Shown: positions 1-4,525 of the stretch, in pieces | Layout: every line of letters starts with the position of its first letter | How positions within the stretch are numbered: position 1 is the stretch's first letter | Origin: an uncultured Bacteroidota bacterium | GTDB taxonomy: Bacteria > Bacteroidota > Bacteroidia > Chitinophagales > Chitinophagaceae | Length of the DNA stretch: 6,859 nucleotides | NCBI GenBank assembly: GCA_903825065.1 | Contig: CAIJZG010000261.1 | Location: forward strand, 1 to 6,859 | Direction of reading: 5' to 3' | Made by a program: the position numbers and the translations under genes | Notes under the pieces: model-generated | The model's database searches: none | The model's input: the letters and a program-made list of their open reading frames with translations, nothing else | Told to the model about the DNA's origin: nothing

Positions 1-38
1 CTAACAGCGTTAGATGTATTTTTGAAACAATTAAATCG

Positions 39-83
39 CAATGCTTGACCAATAAATCCGCTAAGCACATGGATAAAGCATTG
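39..83. repeat. Inverted pair CAATGCTT (39-46) / AAGCATTG (76-83) bracketing both candidate start codons of the first gene
   Basis: Read directly: CAATGCTTG at 39-47 and AAGCATTG at 76-83, separated by 29 nt. The TTG start (45) and ATG start (69) lie inside the pair. The same arm sequence recurs at 3357-3380 and 6660-6685. Confidence 0.4.
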
Positions 84-1193
84 ATCGAGCCTAAATCCTA
101 CCAAAACCCCAAACTTAATTACAGAAATACTCCAGCAAAAAGAAGATTAACTTATAGCTATGAGCGTGGTGAATTAATACTTAGCCCAATTGACTATGAG
201 GACAATGATGGCAGGATTGTTGGGGGCATGGTAACAATAGCAAAACCTAAAACAAAAATATTTGAACACGCTTATTCAGATTTATACATGCCCTTAATAG
301 ATAGGCGTGTGATTGAGCAAAGGTTGATTGCTCCAAACGATATAAATTTATTTAAACCATCTAGTGATGCAACTTTCAATCGTTATTACAAGTTTGATGG
401 GGATCTAAGCCACTTGATAAGATTGGACAGCAAGTTAAACAATGGTGATTTCATATTTTTAAATTTTTATGGATTTGGTGAAGATGACCCCAGCAAATTA
501 CTGCCCCAAGTAATTTACGATCAAGAACATGAATTAAAAATAACAAAGATATTCTTGCCTGTAAACGAAGTTGTAAAAATAGCAGATTTACTTGCCAAAA
601 AATGGATTAACGATATTGGTGAAAATATTAATAGGACACAGCATAGGTTTTGGGAATTGATGTTCAGGAGAGATGGTATTCAGATAGCTTTTGATGAACA
701 TATAGGCGATTTTGAACGCGATGATTTGGTTTTATTTGATATGCCACTGAGCGTAGATCCTGATTTTAGTGGGCTTTTTTTTACACATGAGTTAGCTCCA
801 TTATTAATAACTTTAGCTGAGCTTGATATTAATAGTGAAATTGAAGTTCAATTAAATGATGCTGGTATGGTGTTTAAATATGCAACTGATGCGGCTGACT
901 ACACAGTTGCAATACCAAAATGGGATGGATTGAATGACAACAGACATGTGGAGTTTTTAAATCTATATACGCCTGAGCGATGCGGAGTGAGAGTTGATGA
1001 ATTTGAATTTGATGAATATGATTTAGGAGACGAATTTTACAAAGGACTTGAGTTGCTGGGATTAAAAGATAAATCAGAAGCTGAAGCAATCTATAAAAAG
1101 CAAATAATTAATGAGCAAAGTGAGCTAGCTGATGGATTCCCAGAGTTGAGTGGCAATATTAATTGGATTACGGACGATACATCGGATGAGTAG
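45..1193 (+). CDS. Hypothetical protein, 382 aa (374 aa if the ATG at 69 is used); upstream partner of the DpdA-like gene
   Basis: Long uninterrupted ORF. TTG at 45 or in-frame ATG at 69, with no convincing Shine-Dalgarno for either. The TAG stop at 1191-1193 lies 2 nt before the ATG of the next gene. No P-loop, ParB box or nuclease motif that I trust. Acidic/aromatic C-terminal third (DEFEFDEYDLGDEFY, terminal DDTSDE). Confidence 0.75.
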   Translation: MTNKSAKHMDKALIEPKSYQNPKLNYRNTPAKRRLTYSYERGELILSPIDYEDNDGRIVGGMVTIAKPKTKIFEHAYSDLYMPLIDRRVIEQRLIAPNDINLFKPSSDATFNRYYKFDGDLSHLIRLDSKLNNGDFIFLNFYGFGEDDPSKLLPQVIYDQEHELKITKIFLPVNEVVKIADLLAKKWINDIGENINRTQHRFWELMFRRDGIQIAFDEHIGDFERDDLVLFDMPLSVDPDFSGLFFTHELAPLLITLAELDINSEIEVQLNDAGMVFKYATDAADYTVAIPKWDGLNDNRHVEFLNLYTPERCGVRVDEFEFDEYDLGDEFYKGLELLGLKDKSEAEAIYKKQIINEQSELADGFPELSGNINWITDDTSDE

Positions 1194-1195
1194 CA

Positions 1196-2509
1196 ATGCC
1201 TCAGTCATTTAATACAAAAGAATACGCAGTTTATTTGCCTGCAATTAACTCAGGTTACGCCAACTTTTTAACTAAGAAAATTCCAGCTGACAGATCATTT
1301 CCCAATGGTTTAGACATAAAAGATTTTTGCGTATGGAACAAAAAGAGTAAGTTGTTTTATCACCCTTTCCTATTGCACTCAATTGGTAACTTTAGTGCAC
1401 TATCAACTATTAATAACTCTGTAACTCAAGCCGGCAGAAATGACTTCACATTTGTAGGCGACAGTGGTGGCTACCAGATTGGCAGTGGTGCTCTAGCAGG
1501 TTTTAAAGGATTGCACAAAGGTATGAGTGCACAAGATGCCATGACAGTTTGGGCTGGTGCGTATGATGTTAAAAAATGGATAGTAAGTTGGTTGGATGCT
1601 TATGCCGATTACGCAATGACATTGGATATGCCGTTATGGGCGACTGACCCCAAACAGGGTAAAGATTCCCCATTTAATAAATGCACTGTCTCAGAACTCC
1701 TAGCTATGACAGTGGACAACCTTAAATTTATTGATGTACACGGTAGAAAAAGAACAAAATGGTTGAATGTTGTACAAGGACTAGATGAACAGAGCACAAA
1801 AGATTGGTGGGATGGCGTAAAGTTCTTTAAATGCTCAGGTTATGCACTAGCTGGTGGCGCAGGCGCAAAAGGTGGATTAGCTCAAGTAATACGCACAACA
1901 CGCATGATGCATGACGAGGGACATTTAAGGTCCGGTCAAGATTGGCTTCATGCGCTGGGCGTGTCCACTCCCGTATGGGCAATTATGCTTACCAAAATTC
2001 AAAATTGCCTGCGTAAAGATAATCCAAATTTAACTATTAGCTATGACAGCTCAAGTCCATTTCAAACTGCTGGCAAGTTTGAACAGCCCAATTACACAGT
2101 GCCCTACACAAATAAAATAAGTAGCTGGAATATTAAAACTGCCAAATCCAATACCATCCAACGTTTTAGTTTTGTAGGTAGCACTGACCCCTTCCCATAC
2201 AACTCTCCTCTAGGCCAATTAATGAGTTTGGGGCATATAAACGTTAGGGAAGAGTTGTACAGCAAGAAGCAATTTGACACTATCAGCAACATGCTTCTGA
2301 CCAATCACAATATTTGGGTGTACTTGGATGCTTTTGAAAGAGCAAATGACGAGACGTTTAAAAACAAACAAATGAGCAACGTACCACAGAGGTACATTGA
2401 TGCTATTACAGTTATTGATGATGTGTTTAACAGTTCAAATTGGCACAGCATCCTAGTACAAAACCAAGCATTACTTGATTCCGTAGCCGCTTCACAATAC
2501 AAAACATAG
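1196..2509 (+). CDS. TGT-superfamily base-exchange enzyme (queuine/archaeosine tRNA-ribosyltransferase fold), divergent DpdA-like, 437 aa
   Basis: ATG at 1196 preceded by GGATGAG. TGT motifs occur in canonical order: FVGDSGGYQ (aa 86-94, nt 1460-1477 for DSGGYQ; E. coli Tgt has LTDSGGFQ), YAMTLDMP (aa 139-146; VMIFDEC), LNVVQG (aa 190-195; FGIIQG), GYALAGG (aa 215-221; GYAVGG), HALGVSTP (aa 252-259; YLMGVGKP), SYDSSSP (aa 282-288, Asp284 at nt 2045-2047; MFDCVMP), LLTNHNIWVY (aa 367-376; LNTIHNLRYY). There is no CxCxxC...H zinc motif and no Cys after residue 271. Confidence 0.85.
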   Translation: MPQSFNTKEYAVYLPAINSGYANFLTKKIPADRSFPNGLDIKDFCVWNKKSKLFYHPFLLHSIGNFSALSTINNSVTQAGRNDFTFVGDSGGYQIGSGALAGFKGLHKGMSAQDAMTVWAGAYDVKKWIVSWLDAYADYAMTLDMPLWATDPKQGKDSPFNKCTVSELLAMTVDNLKFIDVHGRKRTKWLNVVQGLDEQSTKDWWDGVKFFKCSGYALAGGAGAKGGLAQVIRTTRMMHDEGHLRSGQDWLHALGVSTPVWAIMLTKIQNCLRKDNPNLTISYDSSSPFQTAGKFEQPNYTVPYTNKISSWNIKTAKSNTIQRFSFVGSTDPFPYNSPLGQLMSLGHINVREELYSKKQFDTISNMLLTNHNIWVYLDAFERANDETFKNKQMSNVPQRYIDAITVIDDVFNSSNWHSILVQNQALLDSVAASQYKT

Positions 2510-2516
2510 GGCAAAT

Positions 2517-2534
2517 ATCTCACAATTGTGAGAT
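2517..2534. repeat. Perfect 18-bp palindrome ATCTCACAATTGTGAGAT between convergent stop codons; possible weak bidirectional terminator or protein-binding site
   Basis: Read directly. The left stop TAG ends at 2509 and the right stop (TTA on +) begins at 2535, so the palindrome nearly fills the 25-nt gap. As RNA it gives a 7-bp stem with a 4-nt loop. The flanks are only weakly T-rich (TTATAT on +, ATTTG on -). Confidence 0.45.
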
Positions 2535-3402: not shown

Positions 3403-3942
3403 TCAGTCAGCTTTGAGTGCGAGATAAGGTATTTGTGTATTTTCAAAATCCCAACAGCCTGTGTTCCCAAACTGAGCCTCTTTAGTGCCGTAATTTAATA
3501 AGTGTGATTGAGTGTTAGCTAACGGTTCTGTAATGTAAATATCGTTTTTTTGCTTTGCTTTGTCTACCCAGCAGTAAGTCCATAGTGTTTTTATATCTTC
3601 TGTTGTAAGTGCTTTGGGTAAGTTGCCTAGGTAAATGTTGTAGTGAATTGACTTTTTTGGATTTGATACTTCTCTAGTGCCTTCTATTGTGGGTATTAGT
3701 AATGGCGAATACAACATTGGCTTACGTATTGCGCCATTTCCATATAGCTCTTTGTTAAAACAGTTTCTTGCATGCCTGAAATCTTTACGCAAATTAAATG
3801 TCATTCTTTCAATGTCGTTTGCCTGTTTGTGATACGCAAAGTAATGGCTTTGCGCAACTACATAGTGCGTTATGTGCTTTTCTTGTTGATTTAAAAATTC
3901 CCTAATTGTTTCCATATTTTTTTGCATGTATTTATTTATCAA
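3403..3942 (-). CDS. Hypothetical protein, 179 aa, with HUH-endonuclease (Rep/YagK-YfjJ-like) motif arrangement
   Basis: Clean ORF. The track start is TTG 3942. Alternative ATGs begin at 3927 and 3915, and none has a clear SD. Motif layout: IPTIEGT...SIHYNIYLG (aa 83-106, an HUH-like H-Y-N) and LLNYGTKEA (aa 148-156, a Y-x-x-K like Rep motif 3). This is a pattern match only. Confidence 0.7.
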   Translation of the reverse strand: MINKYMQKNMETIREFLNQQEKHITHYVVAQSHYFAYHKQANDIERMTFNLRKDFRHARNCFNKELYGNGAIRKPMLYSPLLIPTIEGTREVSNPKKSIHYNIYLGNLPKALTTEDIKTLWTYCWVDKAKQKNDIYITEPLANTQSHLLNYGTKEAQFGNTGCWDFENTQIPYLALKAD

Positions 3943-4081: not shown

Positions 4082-4525
4082 ATGTCAGTATTAACAACCC
4101 TCAAGCTAGTTACTAGCAAGCGTCCCGCAGTATTGAGTCCCATCGTGCAACGTAGAAACAAGTTGGCAGCCAAAGTACATGAGCAATTGGAACTATGCCA
4201 AGCTAAAAAAGCTGGTCAGCAATACGCACCTACAAAGATGCGCACCTTTGTAAACGCTACTACTGGCGAGCAAGTGACCAAGGAAGTTGCAAAACGAGTT
4301 CGTGAGTGGTTTTACGTTGCTGATAGCGGCAAGATTAACTTGACCATCCGCTACGGCTCAAAAACACTTGCACTTAACAAGAAAGGTGCAAACGCTATTG
4401 AGCTTTCTACAGGTGATGAGCTTATAGCTACATTGACCAGCTTGAAAACAGCAATTTTGGCTGGCGATTTTGACGAGGCAATTAACGATGCTAGTAATGC
4501 TACTCGTACAGCATTTGGAAAATAA
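4082..4525 (+). CDS. Conserved island-associated hypothetical protein, 147 aa
   Basis: Excellent SD and spacing. The sequence (MSVLTTLKLVTSKRP...VQRRNKL...YAPTK...INLTIRYGSK...) resembles a family of uncharacterised proteins that I recall seeing next to integrases in proteobacterial islands. I cannot name the family with certainty. Confidence 0.8.
   Translation: MSVLTTLKLVTSKRPAVLSPIVQRRNKLAAKVHEQLELCQAKKAGQQYAPTKMRTFVNATTGEQVTKEVAKRVREWFYVADSGKINLTIRYGSKTLALNKKGANAIELSTGDELIATLTSLKTAILAGDFDEAINDASNATRTAFGK

Follow-up and report, generated by a model that had tools for sequence, protein, structure and literature searches.

We describe a two-gene operon lying in a stretch of 6,859 nucleotides (nt) from an uncultured Bacteroidota bacterium of the Chitinophagaceae (contig CAIJZG010000261.1 of assembly GCA_903825065.1, forward strand; hereafter the window). 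The second gene, ORF2 (open reading frame 2), encodes a divergent enzyme of the tRNA-guanine transglycosylase (TGT)/DpdA superfamily; the first encodes a partner protein with a predicted sliding-clamp fold. Positions of all features are collected in Table 1. A preliminary description of the window, made from its letters alone, had given the first gene as a protein of 382 amino acids starting at a TTG at position 45. The reading frame is in fact open from base 3, up to the window edge, and its translation is 99% identical to residues 263 to 658 of P0121, a protein of 658 amino acids; the supposed 382-residue protein is thus the C-terminal 60% of a truncated gene encoding about 658 residues, and the TTG is an internal codon. 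Full-length homologues of the partner are all 509 to 690 residues long. The coordinates and length reported earlier for ORF2, together with the 2-nt spacer between the genes, were verified. The junction reads ...GAT GAG TAG CA ATG..., with a Shine-Dalgarno-like GGAtGAG stretch upstream of the start codon, and the gaps between partner and enzyme in related loci are mostly -4, -1 or +2 to +7 nt, which is typical of translational coupling. Judged from this arrangement, ORF2 is probably co-transcribed with the partner and translationally coupled to it.

Profile searches had been proposed as a check on the assignment of ORF2 to the TGT/DpdA-like enzymes. Taken literally they returned nothing: neither the single ORF2 sequence nor a 50-sequence profile matched any entry in Pfam (even at E ≤ 10), NCBIfam, PADLOC, PHROGs or the PDB sequences. 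The homology was nevertheless recovered by structure and profile-profile comparison. An AlphaFold2 model of ORF2 reached a predicted local distance difference test score (pLDDT) of 94.3, and a Foldseek search of the PDB with this model returned bacterial TGT as its top 13 matches (E 2e-8 to 3e-6; template-modelling (TM) score up to 0.52). Unrelated TIM barrels began at E 5e-4 in the same search, at least 100-fold behind TGT. Among the viral models of BFVD, the ORF2 model was matched by uncharacterised phage proteins (TM up to 0.77), by an annotated phage 'tRNA guanine transglycosylase' (E 2e-11) and by R9TGF0, a protein of phage nt-1 that has the same length (464 residues) as DpdA2 (E 3e-7).

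A profile of 106 sequences of the ORF2 family was compared with three targets using hhalign. The strongest match was to a six-member DpdA2 profile (probability 97.8%, E 7.5e-13, 185 columns), followed by the nt-1 DpdA2 alone (94.6%, E 7e-8) and Escherichia coli Tgt (90%, E 1.7e-6). The motifs DSGGYQ, TLDMP, VVQG, GYALAGG, LHALGVSTP and ISYDSSSP were paired with the catalytic motifs of each target. All seven TGT motifs named in the preliminary description are present in the order given there, and the alignment of five motifs to Tgt and DpdA2 by hhalign (E 1.7e-6 and 7.5e-13) places them beyond chance. Furthermore, TGT was the sole Pfam family matched by more than one of the 106 relatives, albeit in 4/106 cases and below threshold (best E 0.0045). 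A search for the zinc site CxCx2Cx22-25H found no CxCxxC in ORF2 and no conserved cysteine in the family, although H371 of the HN motif is kept in 87% of family members.

On the combined evidence of the structure model, profile-profile comparison and residue conservation, ORF2 belongs to the TGT/DpdA superfamily and is zinc-less. Its nearest named relative is DpdA2, and we therefore file it as a new zinc-less lineage of the superfamily; it is not itself a member of DpdA2, given that BLAST-level similarity is absent, the alignment is confined to residues ~85-300 and the two occur in different genomic contexts. The earlier DpdA-like label thus held at the level of the superfamily, the closest known subfamily being the phage DpdA2 and not bacterial DpdA. 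The ORF2 family is large, with at least 941 clusters at 50% identity (E ≤ 1e-3), and its members are annotated 'hypothetical protein' only.

Conservation of the active site was assessed across 106 to 123 diverse relatives with 22-45% identity. D89, S90, G92, H252 and D284 are invariant, and G91, Q94, D144, G195 and N372 are at least 90% conserved. DSGGYQ aligns to TDSGGFQ in Tgt and DSGGLQ in DpdA2, the D144 region to FDEC and FDEIP, the H252 region to RYLMG and VHMLG, and the D284 region to MFDCV and ISYDSS, respectively. By analogy with these enzymes, D89 is predicted to serve as the general acid/base (equivalent to D102 of Zymomonas mobilis TGT and D95 of S. Montevideo DpdA), with Y93 as a putative base-stacking gate and D144 as the likely base-recognition aspartate (TGT D156, DpdA D130). 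D284 is the predicted nucleophile of a covalent ribosyl-enzyme intermediate, equivalent to TGT D280 and DpdA D256. H252 would pair with it; the corresponding residue is a tyrosine in TGT, a histidine in DpdA2 and His226 in Cap10, which has a D248/H226 catalytic pair (bioRxiv 10.1101/2025.04.06.647259). Three active-site aspartates, namely the acid/base in the DSG motif, the base-recognition residue and the nucleophile, are invariant in TGT and DpdA, and the acid/base and nucleophile are essential for guanine exchange in DpdA (PMC10164549). The structure match and the hhalign alignments therefore agree with the earlier proposal of a divergent TGT/DpdA-like enzyme with catalytic aspartates at D89 and D284.

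Table 1. Features of the window, with the enzyme and its partner first (nt positions in the window).
Feature	Position	Strand	Remarks
TGT-like gene (ORF2)	1196..2509	+	ATG 1196 to TAG 2509, 437 aa, TIM barrel
Partner gene, C-terminal 396 codons (residues 263-658)	3..1193	+	gene truncated by left window edge
Operon junction: partner TAG, 2-nt spacer CA, ATG of TGT-like gene	1191..1198	+	
Predicted two-domain PCNA-like sliding-clamp fold, partner residues ~310-570	144..926	+	AlphaFold2 model of P0121, Foldseek
DSGGYQ	1460-1477	+	contains D89, Y93
TLDMP	1619-1633	+	contains D144
D144 codon	1625..1627	+	in TLDMP
VVQG	1769-1780	+	motif verified
GYALAGG	1838-1858	+	motif verified
LGVSTP	within 1946-1972	+	motif verified
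H252 codon	1949..1951	+	in LHALG
YDSSSP	2042-2059	+	contains D284
D284 codon	2045..2047	+	in ISYDSSSP
HNIWVY	2306-2323	+	motif verified
Perfect 18-nt palindrome, halves ATCTCACAA and TTGTGAGAT (= ATCTCACAATTGTGAGAT)	2517..2534		between convergent stops of ORF2 and small recombinase
Small tyrosine recombinase, catalytic domain only, 193 aa	2535..3116	-	Pfam Phage_integrase E 1.4e-24
HUH-type Rep/relaxase-like protein, 179 aa, degenerate motifs	3403..3942	-	motif-level alignment with clusters c8, c17
DUF6641 protein	4082..4525	+	Pfam PF20346 E 2.7e-10; phrog_31551 E 3.5e-18
Tyrosine integrase, 409 aa	5437..6666	-	Pfam Phage_integrase + Phage_int_SAM_3

Sequence and profile searches with the partner (Pfam, NCBIfam, PADLOC, PHROGs and PDB sequences) revealed no relatives outside its own family and no similarity to clamps. 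The fold emerged from an AlphaFold2 model of P0121 (overall pLDDT 62.7, predicted TM score (pTM) 0.49), in which residues 440-580 score 75-92 and residues 310-440 lower. The top 50 Foldseek matches of this model in the PDB were all PCNA or beta-clamps (best E 5e-7; 288 matches at E ≤ 1e-3), the best comprising ~320 aligned columns at a TM of ~0.53 normalised to the whole PCNA protomer. According to this model, the C-terminal half of the partner carries a two-domain PCNA/sliding-clamp fold; with regard to ring formation, this is the predicted fold of a single chain only. By its coordinates, the clamp region lies within the part of the gene from which the idea of a new accessory factor was first drawn. 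That idea holds, and the accessory has a sliding-clamp fold. Outside this region are an N-terminal segment of ~300 residues (a helical domain and an alpha/beta segment), disordered linkers and an acidic C-terminal tail. The partner was found to contain neither a nuclease nor a nucleoside triphosphatase (NTPase) or other effector domain, and it shows no ParB or P-loop features. The suggestion that it might be a restriction effector or the sensor of a modification-dependent defence was not borne out, as there are no nuclease motifs or matches and no restriction module is conserved nearby.

The distribution of the pair was followed across 58 genome loci plus several metagenome and phage loci, in which open reading frames were called and clustered; 65 loci enter the gene-presence counts. 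The hosts are mostly freshwater Burkholderiales (Polynucleobacter, Limnohabitans), with Pseudohongiella, Rhodobacterales and Rhizobiales, and the closest genome match (72%) is a Polynucleobacter metagenome-assembled genome. Synteny between the two genes, which had been named as a test of their association, was scored in the 48 non-phage loci with sufficient upstream sequence. The partner lies directly upstream on the same strand in 41 of these and nearby in 44, and the coupling is conserved down to ~30% enzyme identity; the proposed association of ORF2 with a non-ParB, non-P-loop partner is thus supported. Partners from different loci are 16-28% identical, against 30-50% for the enzyme, with few invariant residues; their alignment is shallow, since a search of a large database with the partner profile added three divergent partners only. 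The most divergent bacterial homologues of the enzyme (L062-L064 and L007, the latter on Azospirillum pAB510d) have no detectable partner gene and adjoin other large unknown proteins of 579-708 residues, and they still have a small recombinase and DUF6641 nearby. These large neighbours showed no similarity to the partner; they may be analogous accessories beyond the reach of sequence comparison.

Distant homologues of ORF2 (26% identity, E 8e-26) are found in PA5oct-like and other jumbo phages. Directly upstream of the phage-type enzyme, in 8/8 loci, is a gene for a protein of ~245 residues (cluster c7), which other annotators have labelled 'proliferating cell nuclear antigen' or 'DNA polymerase III sliding clamp beta'. 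A comparison of the c7 profile with PDB sequences found nothing, and the clamp label thus rests on those annotations. In PA5oct (MK797984.1), the enzyme homologue EST35_0316 lies 3 kb from an annotated QueE. The surrounding region (L006, 3894-10729) encodes clamp-like, GT1-like and epimerase-like proteins, a phosphoribosyltransferase and the radical-SAM 'QueE', and may amount to a complete gene cluster for guanine hypermodification that has not been described before. Resistance of PA5oct DNA at several G-containing restriction sites has been reported, and QueE/QueD-like genes are described in this phage with no transglycosylase or DpdA being named (PMC12191111). Additionally, the GT-like gene next to that of the phage-clade enzyme has a homologue (E 1e-21 to 1e-31) in Xanthomonas phage X1, where it abuts a DpdA2-like gene. 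In the X1 locus (L076, 1-2409), the GT-like protein abuts a DpdA2-like 'queuine tRNA-ribosyltransferase' beside QueE. This GT-like family may be an unrecognised accessory shared among phage 7-deazaguanine systems. Taken together, the proximity of QueE in PA5oct, the reported modification of guanine and the homology of the GT-like proteins tie the enzyme family to DNA guanine modification independently of its fold. The genes upstream of the DpdA2-like genes in phages BUCT-ZZ01 and X1 are neither partner- nor clamp-like.

In the window, the operon is followed by genes of an integrative element. The pair had been described as lying between recombinase genes; both recombinases are to its right, and in a near-identical metagenomic contig the left flank carries an 80-residue HTH_17 gene on the opposite strand, ahead of the 658- and 437-residue genes and the small recombinase. 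A canonical dpd cluster, which the preliminary description had thought might lie unseen to the left, is absent from this flank, where only the HTH_17 gene was found; a complete Dpd system just outside the window was therefore rejected. The absence from the window of queC/D/E, folE, dpdB/C, helicase and nuclease genes was confirmed using Pfam, PADLOC and NCBIfam. Scans of the window for tRNA genes, Rfam families, promoters and terminators gave nothing informative, and a generic repeat search found no attachment (att)-like repeats in it.

The genes that recur with the pair in the 65 loci are the small recombinase of ~190 residues (45/65), a cluster of ~420-residue integrases (37/65) and DUF6641 (34/65); DUF6876 and a protein of ~180-200 residues with HUH-type Rep motifs are also recurrent. 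In three loci, L001 (9941-10522), L008 (4731-5312) and L064, a 193-residue serine resolvase occupies the position of the small tyrosine recombinase. This swap at one position suggests that the function is of the resolvase or invertase type and can be filled by either class. The small recombinase was also considered as an invertase for phase variation of the operon; this was rejected, as no flanking inverted repeats were found in its support. The 179-residue open reading frame of the window has no Pfam match above threshold; aligned with two recurrent island clusters (18 sequences), it displays a 'TLTLK'-like motif I, an H-x-H motif II, which is HYN in the window copy, and a tyrosine in Y-x-T-K-E. 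Such a motif set, which is that of small HUH Rep/relaxase endonucleases, suggests rolling-circle replication or mobilisation of the element, and the match of the DUF6641 protein to phrog_31551, a phage family of unknown function, is a hint that the element descends from a phage or a satellite.

A ~12.7-kb element is present in two copies on each of two Pseudohongiella chromosomes (L014/L016 on OZ253535.1 and L015/L042 on OZ254078.1), and the integrase marks one of its ends. Copies within a chromosome are 82-87% identical and have in common the pair, everything upstream of it and the integrase; they differ between the small recombinase and the integrase, a segment that looks like a cargo hotspot. 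As the pair is shared and the differences lie elsewhere, it belongs to the element backbone and is not the variable island cargo it was first taken to be. Besides the pair, the conserved backbone of this integrative element of ~10-13 kb comprises an integrase, a small recombinase, DUF6641 and a Rep-like protein. In the island loci we found neither que nor folE genes, nor any nuclease or helicase that recurs, and no clamp-loader gene in the element.

The backbone position bears on whether the pair might be a two-gene anti-phage defence system or toxin, in which, on infection, the enzyme would act on invading DNA or on host tRNA by base exchange, damaging or relabelling it, and the partner would act as sensor or targeting subunit. 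A compact operon of two genes on an island with an integrase is a typical form of defence system, the divergence of the partner far outpaces that of the enzyme, as in an arms race, and TGT-family enzymes have precedents in immunity in Cap10 (bioRxiv 10.1101/2025.04.06.647259) and in the DpdA of Dpd restriction-modification (PMC10164549). We nevertheless think this reading unlikely: PADLOC matches neither protein, the partner has no detected effector domain of the kinds sought above, the pair is an invariant part of the element, the variable cargo-like region being elsewhere, and the same enzyme family occurs in phage genomes, where counter-defence fits better.

Between the convergent stop codons of ORF2 and the small recombinase lies a perfect palindrome of 18 nt (Table 1), which is conserved in L008 and L001. 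Stems of at least 9 bp occur downstream of the enzyme gene in 25% of 52 island loci, compared with 0.9% of control windows. The palindromes have a loop of zero or one nt and extend up to 37 nt, and two sequence families of them are common across hosts. They could represent a protein-binding site or operator, an origin, a recombination site or a bidirectional terminator.

The presence of a palindrome beside a backbone operon raises the alternative that the pair is the replication or transfer machinery of the element, with the clamp-like partner as a processivity or loading factor for HUH Rep-driven rolling-circle replication. The nucleophilic aspartate would then act as a DNA glycosylase or in covalent attachment, for example by producing an abasic site or nick at a palindromic origin, and no base would be inserted. 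Besides the conserved backbone status of the pair, this alternative has in its favour that clamp folds are classically those of replication factors, that a HUH Rep-like protein, a resolvase-type recombinase and a recurrent palindrome by the gene are conserved in the element, that the jumbo-phage homologue sits within a DNA polymerase/clamp module and that DpdA has been noted to resemble the apurinic/apyrimidinic endonuclease Endo IV (PMC10164549). We regard it as distinctly unlikely, however, because conservation extends beyond the nucleophile to D144, Q194 and the Gly-rich loop, a pattern that fits exchange over simple excision. The nearest relatives are genetically tied to preQ0 pathways, and we know of no TGT-superfamily member that acts as a replication initiator. 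Phages of the PA5oct type, moreover, appear to have modified guanine (PMC12191111).

Among known systems, DpdA2 (type member Vibrio phage nt-1 YP_008125322) is the best profile-profile match of ORF2. The two share the motif set DSGGxQ, xDxxP, QG, HxLG and ISYDSS, neither has the CxCx2C...H zinc motif, and both are missed by the PADLOC DpdA models. They are also similar in length (437 residues for ORF2, 464 for DpdA2), but ORF2 has no BLAST-level similarity to DpdA2 (blastp E 2.8). A tblastn search of phages with ORF2 misses nt-1, and one with DpdA2 finds no PA5oct-type homologues, such that hhalign alone links them. DpdA2 genes lie within FolE/QueC/QueD/QueE/QueF clusters of lytic phages, in contrast to ORF2, which is found in an integrative element with a clamp-fold partner and without que genes. 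The location of DpdA2 corresponds to the preQ0/G+ clusters of phages with dPreQ0/dG+ DNA (PMC6884629).

Bacterial DpdA (S. Montevideo, PDB 7UI4) is likewise a TIM-barrel transglycosylase with the same three aspartates as ORF2 and is also found on genomic islands, but 7UI4 is not among the top 50 structural matches of ORF2. It needs the ParB-like ATPase DpdB to insert preQ0 into double-stranded DNA (PMC10164549). This two-component logic is common to DpdA/DpdB and to ORF2 and its partner; the partner differs from DpdB in its PCNA-like fold, the lack of ParB and P-loop features and the absence of a detectable NTPase motif. The dpdC and dpdD-K genes of the Dpd system are absent from the window and the left flank, and ORF2 differs in having no zinc site. 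No window protein matched the Dpd models of PADLOC or NCBIfam, and neither did the full-length partner. With PCNA, beta-clamps and phage gp45-type clamps the partner has the two-domain fold in common, but it is ~2.5 times longer and has an extra N-terminal helical domain, and its gene lies beside that of a base-exchange enzyme instead of a polymerase or clamp-loader gene.

Bacterial Tgt (PF01702) is the best solved-structure match of ORF2. The catalytic aspartate triad is conserved, and the DSGG[FY]Q motif of ORF2 is identical to that of Z. mobilis TGT. ORF2 differs from Tgt in having no zinc subdomain, in the replacement of the nucleophile-pairing tyrosine by histidine and in its mobile-element context with a clamp-fold partner. 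Cap10, of the type IV cyclic-oligonucleotide-based anti-phage signalling systems, is another TGT-fold enzyme with a dedicated protein partner and a catalytic Asp/His pair, as in ORF2, and it acts on a deazaguanylated protein (bioRxiv 10.1101/2025.04.06.647259). Its structure (9ntn_A) is a weak match to ORF2 (E 3e-3), and genes for Cap9 (QueC-like), a CD-NTase and Cap11 are found neither in the window nor in related loci. A Cap10-type system was rejected for want of Cap9 and CD-NTase, and the N-terminus of the partner (MNTDQTDE) lacks the M(G/S)G(G/S)GG acceptor motif.

These comparisons bear on a further alternative, that ORF2 modifies RNA or protein, either as a mobile tRNA-guanine transglycosylase or through Cap10-like handling of a deazaguanine conjugated to the partner. 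In our estimate it has only a slim chance of being correct. The best PDB matches are tRNA enzymes, Cap10 is among the structural matches with an Asp/His pair like H252/D284, and ORF2 is tightly coupled to one specific partner protein. Yet no conservation is detectable for the insertions and zinc subdomain with which TGT binds the anticodon arm of tRNA, the fold of the partner is that of a DNA clamp and the DpdA2 profile match is stronger than the Tgt match. Cap10-type chemistry in particular is disfavoured because Cap9, CD-NTase and a Gly-rich acceptor N-terminus are all absent. From the clamp fold of the partner, the adjacency of c7 in phages, the preQ0 context of DpdA2 and the example of PA5oct, we infer that the substrate is DNA rather than tRNA.

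The reading we prefer is that the operon forms a clamp-tethered DNA-guanine transglycosylase module within the element backbone, using 7-deazaguanine precursors of the host; we put its chances at about even. The chemistry would most likely be of a known kind, namely DpdA-type base exchange, and what is new lies in the lineage, the loss of the zinc site, the clamp-fold accessory and the backbone role in an integrative element. By analogy with the double displacement of TGT and DpdA, D284, held by H252, would attack C1' of a flipped-out deoxyguanosine and displace guanine to give an intermediate in which enzyme and DNA are covalently joined, with D89 acting as general acid/base and D144 and Q194 serving in base recognition. 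A 7-deazaguanine base would then resolve the covalent intermediate. The donor would most simply be preQ0 from the queuosine pathway of the host, because the element carries no que genes. The partner could keep the enzyme on duplex DNA or move it along by sliding, or it could link the enzyme to replication of the element, a role analogous to that of the ParB-like DpdB for bacterial DpdA. The likely benefit would be self-marking, with protection of element and host DNA from restriction, like that conferred by orphan modification enzymes on mobile elements.

Several observations weigh against this reading. ORF2 falls below threshold for every curated TGT/DpdA model, just about half of it (the barrel core, residues ~85-300) aligns to TGT and DpdA2, and a structural zinc site, conserved in both TGT and bacterial DpdA, is missing from it. 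The model of the partner is only moderately confident on the scores given above, and the fast evolution of this protein also fits a specificity or antagonist-facing role. In the phages, the comparison of c7 with the partner by hhalign was not significant (probability 2.9%), though the alignment was co-linear; phage Phosso has the c7 and enzyme genes 170 kb apart, and the adjacency of c7 elsewhere may merely reflect a neighbourhood of replication genes. As the islands are without genes for 7-deazaguanine synthesis, the donor base is a guess. In the literature searched we found no description of the ORF2 family, the clamp-fold partner or the element; the family is not described in the V. cholerae WASA paper or in a 2026 preprint on genome mining for 7-deazapurines.

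Only recently was the modification of DNA with 7-deazaguanines discovered as a layer of the arms race between phages and hosts; five DpdA subfamilies are known. A question for the field is how a TIM-barrel base-exchange enzyme reaches a guanine inside duplex DNA, the requirement for DpdB being unexplained. The locus described here defines a large uncharacterised family that curated models miss and that is tied to clamp-fold proteins in two independent contexts, in phages by annotation, which leads to the mechanistic idea of tethering or sliding on DNA. In a more far-reaching form of our proposal, which we hold only tentatively and consider rather doubtful as a whole, an element-encoded PCNA-like clamp would not serve a polymerase but would carry a zinc-less DpdA-type enzyme along duplex DNA for processive and possibly replication-coupled replacement of guanine by a 7-deazaguanine or an unknown base; the same family, with a phage clamp, would be the 'missing' transglycosylase of PA5oct-like phages, and the enzymes would constitute a sixth DpdA lineage, with a new, clamp-based answer to how TGT-fold enzymes gain access to double-stranded DNA.

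The family supplies a candidate transglycosylase for the therapeutic jumbo phages of the PA5oct type, whose modified guanine END nucleases detect. In abundant freshwater bacteria such as Polynucleobacter and Limnohabitans, the modification of DNA bases may belong to the core biology of small integrative elements. If true, this would affect restriction barriers and the sequencing and epigenomic readouts of freshwater communities.

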